NCBI GenBank assembly: GCA_012837825.1 | Contig: DUQM01000015.1 | Location: 11,318-75,317 of the forward strand | Reading direction: 5' to 3' | From: Actinomycetota bacterium | GTDB lineage: Bacteria; Actinomycetota; Humimicrobiia; Humimicrobiales; Humimicrobiaceae | DNA: 64,000 bases | Part shown: positions 3,628 to 27,460 of the stretch, one piece after another | How the letters are laid out: each line of letters starts with the position of its first letter | How positions within the stretch are numbered: the first letter of the stretch is position 1 | The notes under the pieces: model-generated | The model's database searches: none | What the model was told of the DNA's origin: nothing | Seen by the model: only the letters and a program-made list of their open reading frames with translations | Translations under genes and position numbers: made by a program

Positions 3628-3635
3628 AAATTATA

Positions 3636-4553
3636 TTATACCCTCAAATATCTTCTTAATGCAAACCCGCTGCTGAGAAGGCCTATAAGAATTCCGACAA
3701 CCATAATTGCAAGGTATATAAATATAATTACATTATTTGATCCGAGCAGTGCGAGATTCTTTATTCTCATCGTTTCAACAAGAGCAGTTTCACCCTTTAT
3801 CAGAAGAAATCTGTTCAGGAAGTAAAGAAGCAGGACAGCAATTCCCCCGCCTACAAAACCTTCAAAAGATCCTTCAAAAAGGAAAGGAGCCCTTATATAC
3901 CAGTTTGTTGCTCCAACAAGCTTCATTACCTCTATTTCTTTTCTTCTTGCATGTATGGAAAGTCTGATTGTGTTAAAAATAAGAACTATTGTAGCCAGAA
4001 CCAGAATAATTATTATAAGCAAAGCAATGGTACCGGTGACTGCAGTTATTGAAAATAGTTTCCTGACATAATTCCTGCCATAGATGACTTCGTCGACCCC
4101 TTCAATATTTCCGCCATCCTTATCAACGAATCTTAAGGCAACCTGTTCTATTTTTTGCGGATCTTTCAGCCTTATTTCAAATGATGCCGGCAGCGGATTC
4201 CCCTGTATTTCTTTCAATATATCACTGCCTTCATATTGTGTTTTAAAGCGTTCAAGAGCCTGATCTTTTGAAATAAAGACCACTTCTTCGATTTCAGGCC
4301 ATTCTTTGATTTCTTCCTCAATATAGGCTTTTAAATCATCTGATATATTGTCTTTAAGATAAACAGCAACCTCAACCTGATTTTCAATTGAATTCAAAAC
4401 ACTTTGTATGTCAAAAACAATTATGGAAAAAACCCCGACTATGAACAAAGTTATTGCAACGGTGGTAATGGCAGTGAATCCCATCAGAAAATTTCTTCTG
4501 AGACTTAAAAAAGTCTCACCGAAAATATGTTTTGGTCGAAATACCAGGCTCAA
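3636..4553 (-). CDS. ftsX: Cell division ABC transporter permease FtsX
   Basis: 305 aa with a 4-TM FtsX-like topology and a large extracellular loop between TM1 and TM2. It overlaps ftsE by 4 nt. Confidence 0.8.
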   Translation of the reverse strand: MSLVFRPKHIFGETFLSLRRNFLMGFTAITTVAITLFIVGVFSIIVFDIQSVLNSIENQVEVAVYLKDNISDDLKAYIEEEIKEWPEIEEVVFISKDQALERFKTQYEGSDILKEIQGNPLPASFEIRLKDPQKIEQVALRFVDKDGGNIEGVDEVIYGRNYVRKLFSITAVTGTIALLIIIILVLATIVLIFNTIRLSIHARRKEIEVMKLVGATNWYIRAPFLFEGSFEGFVGGGIAVLLLYFLNRFLLIKGETALVETMRIKNLALLGSNNVIIFIYLAIMVVGILIGLLSSGFALRRYLRV

Positions 4554-20866: not shown

Positions 20867-21300
20867 AATAATTCAGTATTATAAAAATTTAACAGTGAAA
20901 GTTTTATGATATTCTATCATAAAAAACAATTACTTTTTCCGTTAATCTTTAAAAGAAACACGTTTCTTTTATGAGTTTTTTATAATCCCTGACAGGCCGG
21001 TATTTATCTGTTTCCTTTTACGTGAAACTCTTTCAATGCCGGATGAAAGACAGTTTTTGATTTTTACATCTATGCTGTCACTACTGTCACTATATTTAAT
21101 GACTTTTTTCCTGATTTTGTAAATGAAGTAATATAAAAAGTGCCTGATTTATTTTTCAACAGCCCGAAACCTCCCCGCAGGAGCACAGTGGGGATCACTA
21201 AATAAAAAAACCTTATGTGTCGGGACAGATACCGGCATCACAGGATTCAAATATGGTCTGTCTTAAAACCATGTTCTCTGCTGCTATCGGTAAACCTGTT

Positions 21301-22167
21301 CTATAATTCTGAAGACATTATCTTTTCCCAAATATTCTTTATTTCCTTTCCTGCGATGCTTTCCATGTCATCTACAGCAAAAGTATTGTTGGCAAGATTA
21401 AACGGTATTCTTTCATCATAAGGTATTTCCCCAATTATTTCAGTATTGGCAGAATTGCAGAACTTTATTATTTTCTGACGGTTATCCTCGTTTAAATCTT
21501 TCTTATTTATTACCACAAATGGTTTTATTCCAAAAAATTTAACGACATCATATATCTTTAAAAAATCACTAATCCCTGACAGTGTAGGCTCGATCATTAT
21601 GACTGCAAGATCAACACCATTTAAGGAAGCTATCACTGAACAGCCTATCCCGGGCGCAGCGTCAATTATTATAAGGTCTTTGTTTTCCCTGTAGACAAGA
21701 TCTTCCGCAATATTTCTTACAATCGTAACAAGCTTTCCTGAGTTTTCTGCCCCAGGATCAAGTCTTGCATGAACAAATTTTCCAAAAACTGTATCGGATA
21801 TATAATATTCACCCTGCTTTTCTGCTTTAAGCCCGATTGCATCTGCCGGACAGATATATTCACAGACTCCGCAACCTTCACATTTTAAGGAATCGAATTT
21901 TATATCTGTAATAGAGTCGCTTATTGCATCAAATCTGCATAATTCCTCGCATCTGCCACAGTTTATGCACTCACTTTTAAGATATGCAACAGGACCCCCT
22001 ATAAATTCCTGTGTCTTGAGAATATTGGGTTTTAATAATATATACAGATTGGAAGCATCCACATCTGCATCAACAGCCACATGGTTCTTTGCAAGTCTTA
22101 TAAAATTTGAAGCAAGCGTAGTTTTTCCGGTTCCTCCCTTGCCGCTTATTATAGTCATTTGTTTCAT
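21301..22167 (-). CDS. MinD/ParA-family P-loop ATPase with inserted 2x[4Fe-4S] ferredoxin domain (COG1149-like)
   Basis: Deviant Walker A GKGGTGKTT and two CxxCxxCxxxCP motifs (CINCGRCEELCRFDAI, CEGCGVCEYICPADAI). The start was re-assigned to MKQMTIISGKGG (ATG overlapping the upstream stop in an ATGA junction). The ORF-track N-terminal 22 aa overlap the upstream gene and are probably not translated. Confidence 0.75.
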   Translation of the reverse strand: MKQMTIISGKGGTGKTTLASNFIRLAKNHVAVDADVDASNLYILLKPNILKTQEFIGGPVAYLKSECINCGRCEELCRFDAISDSITDIKFDSLKCEGCGVCEYICPADAIGLKAEKQGEYYISDTVFGKFVHARLDPGAENSGKLVTIVRNIAEDLVYRENKDLIIIDAAPGIGCSVIASLNGVDLAVIMIEPTLSGISDFLKIYDVVKFFGIKPFVVINKKDLNEDNRQKIIKFCNSANTEIIGEIPYDERIPFNLANNTFAVDDMESIAGKEIKNIWEKIMSSEL

Positions 22168-23003
22168 CTGCCCACTTCCTCTTTTATTACATCGATTATT
22201 CCTAAAAACTTGTCTTTCATTTTCGGATCCCACTCAAGAAGAGAACCCCCTTTTGAATAAGTTTTTGCGATGTTTATATCATTGGGGATTTTTAAGAGTA
22301 TTTTATATGAATTCTGTCTGCAGAAGTCTTCAAGCTCTTTGTTTCCGATCCCGTCACGATTTATGATAATTCCAAACTTTTTATCCAGGTTTTTAAGTAT
22401 GTCGATAGATATCTTTAAATCACTCAGTCCGTACAAGGTAGGCTCTGTAACCAGTATGCAATAATCACAATTTTTAACAGCATTTACCATATTGCATGAA
22501 TTTCCGGGAGGACTGTCAATTATAACAGTCTGGCTTCTGTCCAGCATCTTTTCAAGATCCCCCTGAATATTGGAAGTCCTCATGCTTTTTGGCTTTAGAT
22601 TCCCCATAAAAAAATAAATGCCGGGACTTTTAAAACCCTTGCTTATTTCACCGACTTCAACATCTTTTTCCCTGACATAGCCCTCAGGGCCTACGAGTAT
22701 GCACCCTCCGCATCCATGACAGAGTTCTTCAAAAAAAATATAATCCTCACCAATAGAAGCAATCGCATTAAAATGACAGAAGTCTGAGCATGCCTTGAAA
22801 GATACTCCTTCTTTTTTAATGAAATAAGGATATTTTACATATACTTTCTGATAATGATTGATATCCGGCTTCAGAAAAATATCAGAATTTGGTGCCTCAA
22901 CATCAAAATCGTAAAAATTACAATATCCCAGAGACTGGGCAAGCGCTACAGAAACAGTAGTCTTTCCGGTTCCTCCTTTTCCGCTGGCAACTGAAATAAT
23001 CAC
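22164..23003 (-). CDS. MinD/ParA-family P-loop ATPase with Cys-rich (Fe-S) insert, paralogue of preceding gene
   Basis: Walker A GKGGTGKTT, Cys motifs (CSDFCHFNAI…CHGCGGC). It is homologous to the 21301 ORF. Confidence 0.75.
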   Translation of the reverse strand: MIISVASGKGGTGKTTVSVALAQSLGYCNFYDFDVEAPNSDIFLKPDINHYQKVYVKYPYFIKKEGVSFKACSDFCHFNAIASIGEDYIFFEELCHGCGGCILVGPEGYVREKDVEVGEISKGFKSPGIYFFMGNLKPKSMRTSNIQGDLEKMLDRSQTVIIDSPPGNSCNMVNAVKNCDYCILVTEPTLYGLSDLKISIDILKNLDKKFGIIINRDGIGNKELEDFCRQNSYKILLKIPNDINIAKTYSKGGSLLEWDPKMKDKFLGIIDVIKEEVGR

Positions 23004-23018
23004 TTATAACCTCCGTTT

Positions 23019-23390
23019 TTACTCTTTACCCATACCGTAATGAGACTGCACACTGGGACCGGAAGCAGATGTTAGCTGGTTTGCTTTATACTTCGCTATT
23101 GCTTCTTTTATCGGTCCGCTTACACCTGTATATATTTTTATTTTTGCGCTTTCAAACACCCTGTAAGAATTAGGGCCGATATTTCCGGTTATTACTGCTT
23201 CCACACCTTTGGAAATGACTTCCTGTGCTGCCTGTATCCCTGCACCGCCCATTGCATTTCTGCTTGAATTTGAAATAAACTCATAATTCTCAGTACCGTC
23301 ATCATAAATCAGAAAGAAAGGGCATCTTCCAAATCTTGGATCTACTGAAGAATCAATATTGTCACCTGTAGAAGATATACATATTTTCAT
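23019..23390 (-). CDS. NifX/NifB-like dinitrogenase FeMo-cofactor-binding domain protein (COG1433-like)
   Basis: 123 aa. MKICISSTGDNIDSSVDPRFGRCPFFLIYD… and …GAGIQAAQEVISKGVEAVITGNIGPN… are characteristic of the NifX/NafY/NifB C-terminal domain fold. Confidence 0.7.
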   Translation of the reverse strand: MKICISSTGDNIDSSVDPRFGRCPFFLIYDDGTENYEFISNSSRNAMGGAGIQAAQEVISKGVEAVITGNIGPNSYRVFESAKIKIYTGVSGPIKEAIAKYKANQLTSASGPSVQSHYGMGKE

Positions 23391-23416
23391 TTTTACTCCT
23401 TAATTAAACTAATTTA

Positions 23417-23641
23417 TTATTCTCTTGTCATAACAGTACCACATTTTGGACATTCGGTCTGACTGCATGGTACTCCTTGCTGATGGGGCACTTTCTCGCC
23501 ACAGCTCGGGCATACACAGTAACCTCCGATACCGGCACCTCTGCCCATTCCGCCGCCTCTTCCTGAGTAAACTCCTCTTCCCAGACCTCTTCCTGTTCCG
23601 GGACCCTGTCCTGCAGGTCCTGTTCCGTCTCCTCTTGGCAT
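23417..23641 (-). CDS. DUF5320-like Gly/Arg-rich small protein with C-terminal zinc ribbon
   Basis: Begins MPRGDGTGPAGQGPGTGRGLGRG, a conserved N-terminus shared with the 24187 ORF, and ends with CxxC…CxxC (CPSCGEKV…CPKCGTV). Confidence 0.6.
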   Translation of the reverse strand: MPRGDGTGPAGQGPGTGRGLGRGVYSGRGGGMGRGAGIGGYCVCPSCGEKVPHQQGVPCSQTECPKCGTVMTRE

Positions 23642-23757
23642 TTCCCCTCCTTTTAACTGAATTGTTTTAATTTTAATCTTTTATTAATATATTTTATATT
23701 CTATTTTGATTCTTTTCTATCTTCAGATATTTTTCCTATACATCTTCTATGGGTTTT

Positions 23758-24150
23758 TTATGTATGATGGCATTCGCCTTTCTCAACACCCATGCCTTTT
23801 CCGCTTCCCGGCTCACAAACACTGTCCTTTTTTTCAAGTTCATTATTTATGTATGCCTTTACTACATCGTCGGAAACACCTTCAATACCAACATAGCATT
23901 CAATATTATACTGGCTGAAAAGCTCCCGCGCTCTCATCCCCATGCCACCTGTTATAATTAACTCAACTCCTTTATTTTTTAAAAACTCAGGAATAACTCC
24001 TACTTCATGGCCCGGATTATCTATTGCCTCTTTGCTTTTTACTTTTTTATCCTCAATATCGTAAATCGTAAACTGCGGACTTCTCCCAAAATGGGGGAAA
24101 ACCATATTATTTTCAGTAGCTACAGCAATTTTCAAAACATCCTCCTTCAA
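23758..24150 (-). CDS. NifX/NifB-like cofactor-binding domain protein with Cys/His-rich C-terminal tail
   Basis: …IAVATENNMVFPHFGRSPQFTIYD…GVELIITGGMGMRA… matches the NifX-like domain. It has an extra C-terminal CEPGSGKGMGVEKGECHHT tail. Confidence 0.7.
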   Translation of the reverse strand: MKEDVLKIAVATENNMVFPHFGRSPQFTIYDIEDKKVKSKEAIDNPGHEVGVIPEFLKNKGVELIITGGMGMRARELFSQYNIECYVGIEGVSDDVVKAYINNELEKKDSVCEPGSGKGMGVEKGECHHT

Positions 24151-24186
24151 ATATTATTATTTTCTATCTTTTCATAAAAAATAATT

Positions 24187-24597
24187 TTATTTATTTTCCT
24201 GATTTTCGTTTTTTTCCAGTTCCGCCAGCCTGCTTTCAATGTCTGAAATCTGGCTTTTTAAAAACTCTGCCTGATCTTTTAAAAATGCCTTCTCATCTTC
24301 TGCTGCCCCAAATCGGGAAGCGCCCTGAAAAGGGTATGGTTCCGTTCCCCGGTATGAGCCTCGTGCAGGCATTCCTGCATTTGCCCTGTACCATCCGGGA
24401 AGACCTGTTGCATAATACATATTCCTGTAGCCTCTTCCTCTTCCGAAACCGCCTCCGAAAAATCCCGGACCTCTGAAAGCGCCTCTTCCGAATGCCGGAT
24501 TGGCAAAACCGGGTACGGAGTACCCCGCACAATAGCCTGCTGCCTTTCCGGTCATCGGGCCCATTCCTGCCGGTCCTGTTCCGTCTCCTCTTGGCAT
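24187..24597 (-). CDS. DUF5320-like Gly/Arg-rich protein with C-terminal coiled coil
   Basis: N-terminus MPRGDGTGPAGMGPMTGKAAGYCAGY… is paralogous to the 23417 ORF. It has a G/R/F-rich middle and an acidic coiled-coil C-terminus. Confidence 0.6.
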   Translation of the reverse strand: MPRGDGTGPAGMGPMTGKAAGYCAGYSVPGFANPAFGRGAFRGPGFFGGGFGRGRGYRNMYYATGLPGWYRANAGMPARGSYRGTEPYPFQGASRFGAAEDEKAFLKDQAEFLKSQISDIESRLAELEKNENQENK

Positions 24598-24726
24598 AAT
24601 AACACCTCCTGTAAATATTAGAAAATATAATTAAAATATAAATGAACTATGGTTCAATACTATATTAATGAACCATAGTTCATTTGTCAAGATTATATCT
24701 TTTTTTTTATAAAAAAATATTTTTTA

Positions 24727-25281
24727 CTATCCGGCCGAAAATCCTCTCTTTGCAAAACATTTTTCAAGAGCAAAATAGCCTTTATTTATATAAGCAAATG
24801 TATCCAGTTTTTCAACAGAAACGGCATCATTTTCATCCAGAATATTTTCATCCATCATACAGCTTACAACTTCCCCGAAAATAATATTTCCTCCACCTAT
24901 CTTTATGATATCTGCAACCCTGCATTCATAATTTATAGGACACTCTGCAATAAGCTTCGGCTTTATAACTGATGAATCAATTTTTGTAAGACAGGTTTTT
25001 TCAAATTTGTCGACCTGTTCACCGCTGTTTTGACCACAGAAATCAACTTTCTCAAGTATTGAGGAACATGGTATATTCAGACCGAATTCTTTTGTTTCAT
25101 TTATAAGCCTGTAGGAATACTTTTCCCCTCCAATGGAAATCATGACAATCGGTGGAACTCTTGAAGCATTGCTTGTCCAGGCAATTGTAATAATATTATC
25201 ATTTCCATCAGAGTCACAGCATGTAACAAGCGCTATGGGTTGTGGATAAATAATGTTTGAGGGTTGAATATTTTTCTTCAT
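24727..25281 (-). CDS. Flavin reductase-like FMN-binding domain protein (flavoredoxin family)
   Basis: 184 aa. …PQPIALVTCCDSDGNDNIITIAWTS… is typical of the flavin reductase-like split-barrel domain. Confidence 0.65.
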   Translation of the reverse strand: MKKNIQPSNIIYPQPIALVTCCDSDGNDNIITIAWTSNASRVPPIVMISIGGEKYSYRLINETKEFGLNIPCSSILEKVDFCGQNSGEQVDKFEKTCLTKIDSSVIKPKLIAECPINYECRVADIIKIGGGNIIFGEVVSCMMDENILDENDAVSVEKLDTFAYINKGYFALEKCFAKRGFSAG

Positions 25282-25438
25282 AAAAACTCCTGTCTGGTTT
25301 TTTGATAATCCGAATCAGTTCGAACGGTTTATTTTTTCCAAAATAATTAATTGATAACTTATGAACTATGGATCAATATGATTTATTATATTTTTATGCG
25401 GCAATTTACAGGAAAAAGATAAGTGGCTGCGCCTGATA

Positions 25439-25927
25439 TTAAAATCTTCCCTGCCGCAATCTTCCACCACGGCCATGCCCATAACCAGAATTACACTTCT
25501 TAAGCATCTCTTCCATATTTTCTACATCATCTTCTTTGCAGCTTGGGCAGTTTTCTTCAATATCCAAACCCTTGTTCTGTTCATCTGCTTTCAGATCCCA
25601 TTCATATCCACACTTCCTGCATCTGTAGGCATTATTAACAAAAACAAAACTGCCTCCCTCTATACGTATTGCATAACCGTTAACAATAGCGCTCCCTATC
25701 TTTTTATGCGCACTACCTAACAGTCTTGTAAAAGTAGGCCTTGAGATCTCCATACTTTTCGCTGATTCAAGATGATTTAAATTCTCAATATCAACAAGCC
25801 TGATTGCTTCATATTCATCAACAGTCAGATTTACCGATTCAAGTTTGGAAGCAGGTACCCCGGCAGGCTTAAAAAAATAAAATCTTGGCGGATAAAGAAC
25901 TTTTCTCTTTTTTTTCGGCTTAACCAT
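25439..25927 (-). CDS. DUF134/UPF0251 family putative DNA-binding protein with C-terminal zinc ribbon (COG1342-like)
   Basis: The N-terminal region (…LTVDEYEAIRLVDIENLNHLESAKSMEISRPTFTRLLGSAHKKIGSAIVNG…) resembles a sigma-70 region-4-like HTH typical of DUF134. The C-terminus has CRKCGYEW…CPSCKED. Confidence 0.6.
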   Translation of the reverse strand: MVKPKKKRKVLYPPRFYFFKPAGVPASKLESVNLTVDEYEAIRLVDIENLNHLESAKSMEISRPTFTRLLGSAHKKIGSAIVNGYAIRIEGGSFVFVNNAYRCRKCGYEWDLKADEQNKGLDIEENCPSCKEDDVENMEEMLKKCNSGYGHGRGGRLRQGRF

Positions 25928-26332
25928 AACTTATTTAATATCCGGTTTTTATTTATACTAAATAAAATATTTATAAATTTTATAACTTATAACAGATTAT
26001 CTGTTTTGTTTTATAAATATGTGATCGGTATTGCAAATAATGATATTTAAAAATAATTTTTATTTCCCGCTATTACTATTATAGTATCACACCCATTGAT
26101 TAATTTCAGCTTATAGAACATGCCGGAACTCAATAATAAAAACCGGTCGGATTTATAATTTTTATGAATCCTTATATATAAAAAAGCCATAATAAATAAC
26201 TGTAAATATAAATTTTAAGCATGGAAAAGATAATGAAGCTATTTAAATCCAAAAAAGGCATTATTTATTATGAATACTCTTCAGAAAATCCTGTGCATAC
26301 AAAAAATTATTGAAAAATATCATTGTCTGATT

Positions 26333-27460
26333 TTATTTCATCATTTTTTGTATTATCTGGCTTGAAATAATATCAACCATCTCATCTATGCTGTTTCTTG
26401 ATAAGGAGGAAGATAGCTTATTCCCTATGCTTCCCGGATCTATTTTGCAGTTTGCGGAATCGACGTACTGTCTGGTTTTAATTTCTACATATTCACAGAA
26501 AGGAATTATTTCCTTCGATGGTGAATATTCCATTTTTGTATGTGGAAAATATTTTAGAAGAAGATCTTCTGTCATTTTCCTCAGTTTATTTTTCACTTCA
26601 ACCAGCTCATTGCCAAGCAAAGTGTTATAAGCCATTTTCGGAGGACCCATTTTTATTCCTCTTAAATCAAGAGCTTCCTTGAAACCCTGGGGGAAATTTA
26701 CTGATTTCATTGTTCTTATGAATTCAAGAATTGCAAACTGAAGCTCAAGAGCGCGGGAATGGTTCCCGTTTAAAAAATTATCATAAATGCCTACCATGAA
26801 TTCCGGAAGTATTCCGGCTGTTGCAGTCATGCAGCCTTTGCCACCGGCTGCAAGAGCAGGATACAGAATTTCTTCCGCCCCTACAAGCACCTTGAAATCA
26901 GGCTTTATTTTCTTCGTCATTTCTATAAGATTCATGACATTTATCATATTCCCTGATGAATCCTTGATGCCTACAACATTTGGAAGAACGCAGAGGTCAC
27001 GAGCTATCTGCGGTGTTACTTCATTTGCAAAAAAAGGTATATTGTATAAAAAAATCGGAATATCGACAGCAACTGCAACTTTCTTGAGATGCTCCTCAAC
27101 AATATCATTTATATTTTTGAAGAAATAAGGGCCATGAAGCACAACTGCGGAACAACCTTTTTCTTTTGCATAATCTGCCAGTTCAATTGATTTTTCAAAA
27201 CAAGTTGCTCCTGTGCCGGGAATAATGGCTACCCTTCCATTATTTTCATCAGCAACTATGTCAATCAGATACTTTCTCTCTTCCATATCCATATGCACAT
27301 ATTCACCGCATGATGAAACAGGAAAAATACCATCAACGCCACTGTCGATCAGAAAATTAACAAGTTTTCTTACTTCAATTTCGTTTACTCTCCCATCTTC
27401 TTTGAAGGGAGTAAGCATTGCAACTATTACACCTTCCGGAATAGCCATCTTTAACTCCAA
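26333..27460 (-). CDS. DapA/N-acetylneuraminate lyase family enzyme (2-keto-3-deoxy sugar-acid aldolase or dehydratase) with ~80-aa C-terminal extension
   Basis: …VIVAMLTPFKEDGRVNEIEVRKLVNFLIDSGVDGIFPVSSCGEY… TIM-barrel Schiff-base lyase family signature. It is the last gene of the sugar-acid operon. The C-terminal 80 aa lie outside the normal ~295-aa fold. Confidence 0.6.
   Translation of the reverse strand: MELKMAIPEGVIVAMLTPFKEDGRVNEIEVRKLVNFLIDSGVDGIFPVSSCGEYVHMDMEERKYLIDIVADENNGRVAIIPGTGATCFEKSIELADYAKEKGCSAVVLHGPYFFKNINDIVEEHLKKVAVAVDIPIFLYNIPFFANEVTPQIARDLCVLPNVVGIKDSSGNMINVMNLIEMTKKIKPDFKVLVGAEEILYPALAAGGKGCMTATAGILPEFMVGIYDNFLNGNHSRALELQFAILEFIRTMKSVNFPQGFKEALDLRGIKMGPPKMAYNTLLGNELVEVKNKLRKMTEDLLLKYFPHTKMEYSPSKEIIPFCEYVEIKTRQYVDSANCKIDPGSIGNKLSSSLSRNSIDEMVDIISSQIIQKMMK

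Follow-up and report, generated by a model that had tools for sequence, protein, structure and literature searches.

Two described regulators stand closest to the system examined here. One is OrpR (DVU2106), which controls the orp gene set of D. vulgaris and is both a sigma-54 activator and a [4Fe-4S] redox sensor (PMC8359166, PMC3897727). The other, DeoR of B. subtilis, is a repressor of nucleoside catabolism whose DNA-binding domain has been solved (7bhy, 8r7y) and whose operator is that of dra-nupC-pdp (PMC11229326). The DUF134/UPF0251 proteins are labelled in databases only as 'predicted DNA-binding protein'. We examined a gene of this family in a 64,000-nucleotide stretch of DNA (the window) from an Actinomycetota bacterium (contig DUQM01000015.1, positions 11,318 to 75,317), where it lies approximately 750 bp upstream of a conspicuous inverted repeat (24640-24685) in the promoter region of a gene cluster resembling the orp set. 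Our analysis indicates that the palindromes composing this repeat are very likely operators of the neighbouring DUF134/UPF0251 protein, which would repress the orp-like cluster and a flavin reductase gene by promoter occlusion. All of the evidence is computational, the search for regulon members covered this 64-kb stretch, and the transcription start is a predicted one.

The element comprises AAATGAACTATGGTTCA at 24640-24656 and TGAACCATAGTTCATTT at 24669-24685, which are complementary at 17 of 17 positions across a gap of 12 nt (24657-24668) and are located 43-88 bp 5' of the ATG of a DUF5320 gene (24597, minus strand); a repeat search could extend the pair to 23-nt arms with a 91% match and zero gap. 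Among perfect inverted repeats with loops of up to 50 nt it ranks as the longest in the window, and the longest repeat in each of 100 first-order Markov simulations measured 10-15 nt and never reached 17. A third copy, ATGAACTATGGATCAATA at 25361-25378, shares 94% identity with 24642-24659 (one mismatch) and is positioned 80-97 bp 5' of the flavin reductase start (25281) and 61 bp past the DUF134 stop (25439). Both the perfect repeat upstream of DUF5320 and a near-identical copy about 700 bp further upstream had been reported in the original prediction, and both were found on re-reading the sequence. The pair of arms is real, but it is not the functional unit: within each arm lies a 14-bp palindrome, TGAAC-N4-GTTCA (24643-24656 and 24669-24682; with one mismatch, 25362-25375), so that the apparent inverted repeat consists of two palindromic sites in tandem, spaced by 26 bp. 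Exact occurrences of GAAC-N4-GTTC in the 64 kb are restricted to the first two positions, and allowing one mismatch yields, besides 25362-25375, a single unrelated match at position 100. This chance match (100-113) falls within a complete tmRNA gene on the minus strand (81-434; Rfam RF00023, 210 bits, E=2e-84).

The location of the palindromes relative to promoter elements, all on the minus strand, suggests how they would act. A promoter scan of 24100-26400 gave as its top sigma-70 match (10/12 positions) the DUF5320-operon promoter, with a -35 hexamer TTGACA (24685-24690) that is invariant among orthologs and a -10 hexamer TAATAT (24662-24667) separated by a 17-bp spacer. The first palindrome, operator O1 (24669-24682; TGAACTATGGTTCA on the coding strand), lies wholly within this spacer, and the second, operator O2 (24643-24656; TGAACCATAGTTCA on the coding strand, its centre 26 bp from that of O1), starts 5 nt past the -10 hexamer and spans the predicted transcription start (~24655). 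The coding strand of the flavin reductase/DUF5320 intergenic region consequently reads AATC-TTGACA-AA-TGAACTATGGTTCA-T-TAATAT-AGTAT-TGAACCATAGTTCA-TTTATATTTTAATT...AGGAGG...ATG. Operator O3 (25362-25375; TGATCCATAGTTCA on the coding strand, one mismatch) is found 9 bp 3' of TATAAT (25385-25390), the -10 hexamer of the flavin reductase promoter as read from the sequence. The -35 element of this promoter in the window is weak (CTGTAA, 25406-25411, 15-nt spacer) and matches at 3/6 positions only, leaving the promoter unscored in the scan; compared with TTGCAA and a 16-nt spacer in orthologs L001 and L004, and given its operator mismatch, it looks weaker than that of its relatives. All three operators overlap a core promoter, in the spacer or at +1, and these are classic repressor positions. 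Because O1 fills the spacer and O2 covers the predicted start, DUF134 bound to them should exclude RNA polymerase from the DUF5320-operon promoter, and DUF134 on O3, just past the flavin reductase -10, would repress that gene likewise.

The same positions bear on whether DUF134 might bind and activate instead, either as a MerR-type spacer binder or as a polymerase helper resembling sigma region 4, which we consider unlikely. The -35 elements of extracytoplasmic function (ECF) sigma factors contain GGAAC, and the half-site TGAAC resembles them. The helix-turn-helix (HTH) of DUF134 has the sigma-70 region 4 fold, as compared for example with E. coli sigmaE region 4 (GGAACTT, PDB 2h27; Foldseek probability 1.0, 0.5-0.7 Å), with which it also shares a similar 'GAAC' element, and the orp operons of D. 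vulgaris are under the positive control of OrpR (PMC8359166). However, a consensus -35 and a spacer of the optimal 17 bp are already present in the DUF5320-operon promoter, in contrast to the 19-20 bp of MerR-type spacers, which makes MerR-like activation improbable. Sites are also placed at +1 or just past the -10 (O2, O3 and 26 sites at distant loci), which are repressor positions, and the homologous DeoR is a repressor (PMC11229326). DUF134 cannot be a sigma factor because region 2 is missing, and unlike the elements read by sigma region 4 its sites are palindromic, implying a dimer, and are found in the spacer or at +1, not at -35.

To place these sites in a wider context, we scanned species-representative genomes with a DUF134 alignment, which yielded at least 577 confirmed loci. 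The comparison covered 92 loci in total: 12 close orthologs (L001-L012; DUF134 identity 75-91%) and the best 80 distant loci (L013-L092; identity 38-53%), the latter including Spirochaetota, Dehalococcoidia, Calditrichota, Bacteroidota, Ignavibacteria, Lentisphaeria, Cloacimonadota, Marinimicrobia, Clostridia, Campylobacterota, Desulfobacterales and some archaea. Perfect copies of TGAAC-N4-GTTCA occur 29 times in the 558 kb of the distant loci versus 0.3 expected, and nearly all are located 20-80 bp 5' of the DUF134 start codon. With a generalised site model (TGnnC-N4-GnnCA, positions 3-4 symmetric, no more than 150 nt 5' of DUF134), a palindrome was found upstream of DUF134 in 53/80 loci, compared with rates of 2.2% in shuffled upstream regions and 2.6% in other 150-nt windows of the same loci. 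Among strong sites, 35/45 fall in the 2.4% of sequence directly 5' of DUF134 (P=9e-48). The search of related loci that the original prediction proposed thus recovered the motif type across phyla, and it is also kept in all 12 close orthologs. In most of the 80 loci DUF134 heads an operon in the order DUF134, DUF5320, NifX-like, MinD-Fer, MinD-Fer, NifX-like, and since the operator is then at the DUF134 promoter, the usual arrangement appears to be autoregulation of the whole operon.

The promoter layout of the window recurs in the distant loci as well, with 11 sites in a spacer and 26 just past a -10-like hexamer (for example, cTTGACAaaTGAACATATGTTCAtTATAAT in L070 and TTGACGaatTGAACTTATGTTCAtTATATT...TGAACATAAGTTCA in L024). 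Paired sites are present in 15 distant loci and are mostly 24-45 bp apart; examples of a two-site layout are L013, L015, L023, L024, L035 and L038. The clearest parallel is L013, where cTTGACAatTGAACCAAAGTTCAtTATTAT...TGAACAATGGTTCA 5' of the DUF5320 gene mirrors the dual-operator DUF5320 promoter of the window almost exactly, even though its DUF134 protein shows only 53% identity and the DNA on either side does not align. Further sites were identified 5' of DUF5320 in L013, L025, L053, L056 and L085, and 5' of Mrp/ParA in L014, the last being of the spacer type. The window sites, which precede the DUF5320 operon and the gene next to DUF134, accordingly share a gene cluster with DUF134, as expected of an operator class proposed to stand 5' of DUF134, DUF5320, Mrp or NifX-like genes. 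Locus L014 contains tandem DUF134 paralogs (3633-3944 and 4001-4450), of which the upstream one is short, is without the zinc-ribbon part and has the helix ISRGTYQRIL; the L014 operator sits past the second paralog, in the Mrp/ParA promoter spacer.

A position weight matrix (PWM) built only from the 29 perfect distant-locus sites ranks the three window operators first to third in the 64 kb (O1 22.2, O2 21.5 and O3 16.3 bits), with the next-best window match at 6.8 bits and shuffled sequences reaching 7.5-13; scored sites in the window are confined to promoters of the orp cluster. A rival possibility is that the palindromes are operators of a regulator encoded elsewhere in the genome, whether LexA or a true SorC/DeoR repressor with the same helix. 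The 'Cheo' box of the Gram-positive LexA SOS system is CGAAC-N4-GTTCG, with which the sites share an identical GAAC-N4-GTTC core, a 14-bp palindrome geometry and promoter overlap, and B. subtilis DeoR binds almost the same sequence. In contrast to the Cheo box, T/A takes the place of C/G at the outer positions in 97% of the 29 perfect distant sites, and the window sites are confined to the orp-like cluster, a context of neither SOS genes nor sugar catabolism. The motif follows DUF134 across phyla whose LexA motifs differ greatly, it changes with the DUF134 helix, and no further open reading frame in the window encodes the S-R-x-T-x-x-R-L helix. Outer bases, genomic setting and covariation with DUF134 together led us to reject LexA, and we regard control by any regulator encoded elsewhere as highly improbable. 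Sites of the Rex and CRP/FNR types were also considered and set aside; their spacing and half-site differ.

The preferred reading, that DUF134 itself binds these sites, is supported by the protein. The window DUF134 (162 aa; 25439-25927, minus strand; Pfam PF02001, 1.3e-22, plus Zn_ribbon_8) contains a recognition helix I-S62-R63-P64-T65-F66-T67-R68-L-L, in which R63 and R68 are invariant in the family, and a zinc-ribbon-like Cys4 C-terminus (C103, C106, C127 and C130), in which C103, C127 and C130 never vary and C106 occurs in no fewer than 90% of the aligned sequences. An AlphaFold2 model places the HTH (residues 36-83) at a predicted local distance difference test (pLDDT) score above 90 and residues 86-146 in a small beta/zinc-ribbon domain with a weak HypA/MCM zinc-ribbon resemblance; no solved structure of a whole-length DUF134 protein was found. 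Residues 1-30 (25838-25927) form a conserved basic arm, KPKKxRxVxxPPxxxYFKPxGxP, with P14, K20, P21 and G23 invariant, that is modelled without regular structure. This arm might contact the AT-rich operator centre or flanks, or a partner protein.

When the recognition helix is written as S-R-x1-T-F-x3-R, its variable residues covary with the bases of the half-site among distant DUF134 loci that have sites. The P/T combination is associated with TGAAC in 28/28 half-sites, P/Q with TGAGC in 12/14 and S/T with TGCAC in 14/16, while P/H is found with TGAAC or TGGAC and S/Q with TGGGC. Mutual information is 0.735 bits between x3 and base 4 and 0.457 bits between x1 and base 3, values reached by 0/5000 locus-level permutations. 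When all alignment columns were tested against bases 3 and 4, the top four were T67, L69, H52 and P64, all within the HTH. The window protein, with helix S-R-P-T-F-T-R (P/T type) and TGAAC sites, agrees with this code. A dimer of DUF134, proposed because the sites are palindromic, would thus recognise the operator form (a/t)TGAAC-N4-GTTCA(t/a), with an AT-rich N4 centre, through its sigma-region-4/DeoR-type HTH, with the invariant R63 and R68 and the variable P64 and T67 reading the half-site TGAAC. Three loci from Deltaproteobacteria/Desulfobacterales metagenome-assembled genomes (L040, L077 and L089) have the helix S-R-P-T-V-T-R-M and no recognisable TGnnC-N4-GnnCA palindrome upstream.

A solved system with the same type of helix is provided by DeoR, whose DNA-binding domain is matched by the DUF134 profile (7bhy, 8r7y; E=1.3e-6). 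The two HTH domains superpose with a root-mean-square deviation of 0.6 Å over 40 residues at 38% identity (Foldseek, 7bhy), the DUF134 model overlays both the DeoR domain/DNA complex and sigma-70 region 4 domains at 0.5-0.7 Å, and the DeoR helix ISRPTVSRLL parallels ISRPTFTRLL of the window. The physiological DeoR operator is ATTGAACAAAATTTCAATTACCAATTTACATATGTTCAA, in which base-specific contacts to TTGAACA are made by R34 and R39 (PMC11229326); by alignment, these residues appear to correspond to R63 and R68 of DUF134. DeoR has the same half-site, (T)TGAAC, and the same TGAA-N6-TTCA geometry as the DUF134 sites, and because its operator carries a TGAAC half-site, the same type of helix can be said to read the same half-site in a solved system. 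Like the window, with TGAACTATGGTTCA and TGAACCATAGTTCA, DeoR uses a two-site, promoter-overlapping operator, containing TGAACAAAATTTCA and TTTACATATGTTCA, which depart from the DUF134 consensus by 1 and 2 mismatches, and it acts as a repressor. The beta segment following its HTH forms the dimer interface, to which the equivalent invariant strand AIRIEGG of DUF134 may correspond. The two systems differ in that the DeoR sites are spaced at 22 bp and the DUF134 sites at 26 bp in the window and 24-45 bp elsewhere, and in that DeoR governs nucleoside catabolism and DUF134 an orp-like metal-cluster system. The hallmark of SorC/DeoR proteins, a sugar-phosphate effector domain of ~250 aa (PMC11229326), is also missing from the 162-aa DUF134, which instead combines a Cys4 zinc-ribbon-like domain of ~60 aa with the conserved basic N-terminal arm; DUF134 is therefore not a member of the SorC family and shares with it the DNA-binding domain alone. 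Together with the cross-phylum association, the covariation and the PWM transfer, this homology supports the suggestion that the element is an operator dedicated to a dimeric regulator, for which the neighbouring DUF134 is the candidate, binding itself being predicted.

The close orthologs provide a further view of which features are maintained. The gene order DUF134, flavin reductase, DUF5320 is common to L001-L012, as are the -35 hexamer, O1, the -10 hexamer and O3, with sites scoring 17.5-23.9 bits by the independent PWM. O1 scores 22.5-23.9 bits in these loci and the O3 position, occupied by TGAACTATAGTTCA or TGAGCAATGGTTCA, 17.5-23.2 bits. The ortholog -10 hexamer is TATAAT in L001, L007 and L004 (within TTATAAT, CTATAAT and TCATAAT) and TATAGT in L010. 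In L001, L007 and L010, O2 is degenerate (TGTAGCGTAGTTCA, TAAACTATAGTTAT and TAAATTATAGTTAA), with O1 unchanged and no compensatory change. The conspicuous 17/17 repeat is the result of O2 having become a perfect mirror of O1 in the window.

This pattern is relevant to the proposal that the 17-bp hairpin is an RNA terminator or attenuator for flavin reductase read-through, alone or besides an operator role. The hairpin starts 42 nt past the flavin reductase stop codon, the fold of the window intergenic RNA has an energy of -27.9 kcal/mol (z=-6.5 versus shuffles), the stem is followed by AUAUUUUA, and L004 retains a similar hairpin (z=-5.5). In L001, L007 and L010, however, the second arm has decayed against a fixed first arm, and the fold reaches only z ~-2. 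A terminator-consensus scan of 24100-26400 returned 0 terminator-like sites, and the stem is AT-rich (5/17 G-C pairs) with a 12-nt loop, as opposed to a G+C-rich stem, a 3-8-nt loop and an immediate U-tract. Transcripts from the TTGACA-17-TAATAT promoter would carry a single arm, the third copy (25362-25375) is without a partner arm, and no Rfam family was found here at gathering and E-value thresholds, the only matches being sub-threshold plant-miRNA hairpins. A terminator role is quite unlikely since the palindromes, and not the hairpin, are conserved in the orthologs; the hairpin may be a by-product in this strain. The bidirectional terminator offered as an alternative in the original prediction fares no better, as the neighbouring genes are all on one strand and there is nothing to terminate on the plus strand.

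Compared with the distant loci, the window lineage has some further peculiarities. A flavin reductase-like gene is part of the regulon only in L001-L012 and the window, with no homolog near any of the 80 distant DUF134 loci (0/80); it splits the operon, has its own operator-bearing promoter and would be a regulon member recruited in this lineage. The earlier proposal that DUF134 controls the operators is supported, but DUF134 of this lineage does not have an operator of its own as it does in most phyla. Evaluation of a possible autoregulatory site 5' of the window DUF134 found none by PWM. All that exists there is a 24-nt segment, 25994-26017 (5' of DUF134), that is 88% similar to 24690-24713, just 5' of the -35 of the O1-bearing DUF5320 promoter. 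The stretch 5' of DUF134 holds the palindrome AACAGATTATCTGTT and no operator. The 25994-26017 segment may have arisen as a copy of the operator-bearing promoter that has since eroded, as one would expect if the window lineage had lost autoregulation.

Several observations weigh against the proposed regulatory system and temper its individual steps. O2 is poorly kept in the nearest relatives, L004 (15.4 bits) being the one locus besides the window where it is strong, the PWM scan places no operator 5' of DUF134 itself in the window lineage, and a recognisable site is absent in 27/80 distant loci, so some subfamilies may use another motif or forgo autoregulation. Paired-site spacing ranges from 24 to 45 bp, and this variation makes cooperative binding uncertain. 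Shared ancestry inflates the covariation of helix and half-site, only Dehalococcoidia contribute to the P/Q-TGAGC class, and many non-HTH columns also reach z 6-8 in the association test. The AlphaFold2 model, at a moderate overall pLDDT of 74, is uninformative on oligomeric state. Repression by DUF134 is deduced from site position only, and our literature searches gave no binding, transcript-end or expression study of any DUF134 protein.

Every gene in the region is on the minus strand, and the genes under the operators comprise the flavin reductase-like (flavoredoxin-type) gene (24727-25281; Pfam PF01613, 5e-28), with O3 in its promoter, and the putative regulated operon (21301-24597; Pfam). 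The latter encodes DUF5320 (24597-24187), a Nitro_FeMo-Co/NifX-like protein (24150-23758), a second DUF5320 (23641-23417), a second NifX-like protein (23390-23019) similar to the 'orange protein' ORP of D. gigas (PDB 2wfb, E=2e-17) and to MTH1175, and two MinD/CbiA ATPases, the first (23003-22164) with an Fe-S-binding match below cutoff only and the second (22233-21301) with a clear 4Fe-4S ferredoxin insert (Fer4, 5e-12). We describe the cluster as orp-like because of the ORP/MTH1175 match and because the NifX-like and ATPase genes have partial NCBIfam matches to MrpORP. The regulon would therefore be an anaerobe-specific orp-like cluster of DUF5320, NifX/ORP-like cofactor-binding proteins and MinD-type ATPases, one of which has a 4Fe-4S ferredoxin insert, joined by Mrp/ParA in relatives.

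The equivalent set in D. vulgaris (ORP/NifX-like proteins, MinD-type Fe-S ATPases and Mrp) is controlled by OrpR, whose gene adjoins its targets as does that of DUF134 (PMC8359166, PMC3897727). OrpR is a sigma-54 enhancer-binding activator with PAS-[4Fe-4S], AAA+ and HTH domains that depends on IHF, whereas the promoters here are of the sigma-70 type and the candidate regulator is a 162-aa HTH and Cys4 protein positioned to repress. No sigma-54-like element (TGGCAC-N5-TTGC) was detected in 21000-26400 and no AAA+ enhancer-binding protein is encoded among the cluster genes, and control of the sigma-54/OrpR type was rejected on these grounds. DUF134 would then be a non-orthologous replacement of OrpR. 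Since the D. vulgaris orp operons respond to redox state through the Fe-S cluster of OrpR, the four conserved cysteines of DUF134 could by analogy sense redox state or a metal or Fe-S cluster, a suggestion in which we place little confidence.

These results assign a binding motif, a candidate recognition code, a mode of action (promoter occlusion) and a putative regulon to an uncharacterised family present at no fewer than 577 loci in many anaerobic phyla and some archaea. The motif, code and regulon are new for this family, as is the unusual pairing of a DeoR-type HTH with a Cys4 ribbon, and so is the identification of the family as the likely regulator of orp-like clusters outside Desulfovibrio. 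Full-text literature searches across 8 million papers, which did not extend to curated regulon databases and may have passed over a brief mention of COG1342 beside orp clusters, returned no study of DUF134/UPF0251 function, binding site or regulon, in line with the expectation that this would be a first regulon definition for the family. The function of orp-like clusters is poorly understood and their regulation has so far been known in Desulfovibrio only, and the motif could be used for regulon annotation in thousands of uncultured anaerobe genomes. The system as such is a conventional HTH repressor and operator, and the advance is the assignment of a family rather than a new principle. A broader generalisation is possible but doubtful, namely that anaerobes widely use DUF134/UPF0251 (COG1342) as a one-component repressor that replaces OrpR in most phyla, is switched by redox state, Fe-S clusters or metal through a redox-labile Cys4 cluster rather than structural zinc, controls an orp-like metal-cluster and cell-division-linked operon, and has a rewritable code from x1/x3 to bases 3/4.

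Additional features were noted in and around the cluster. The two DUF5320 paralogs share a 52-nt 5' end with 83% identity (23590-23641 and 24546-24597) that encodes MPRGDGTGPAG, and the second, at 74 aa, is a short version that then continues into a Cys-rich tail. The MinD/CbiA ATPase reading frames as listed overlap by 70 nt (22164-22233); the true start of the downstream ATPase is probably a later codon (MKQMTIISGKGG...), giving the 4-nt overlap that is usual elsewhere. Upstream of DUF134, a 28-nt repeat (82%; 26034-26061 and 26302-26329) flanks a 400-bp AT-rich gap, and a 26-nt imperfect inverted repeat (81%; 26297-26322 and 26328-26353) spans the stop codon (26333) of a DHDPS-family gene.

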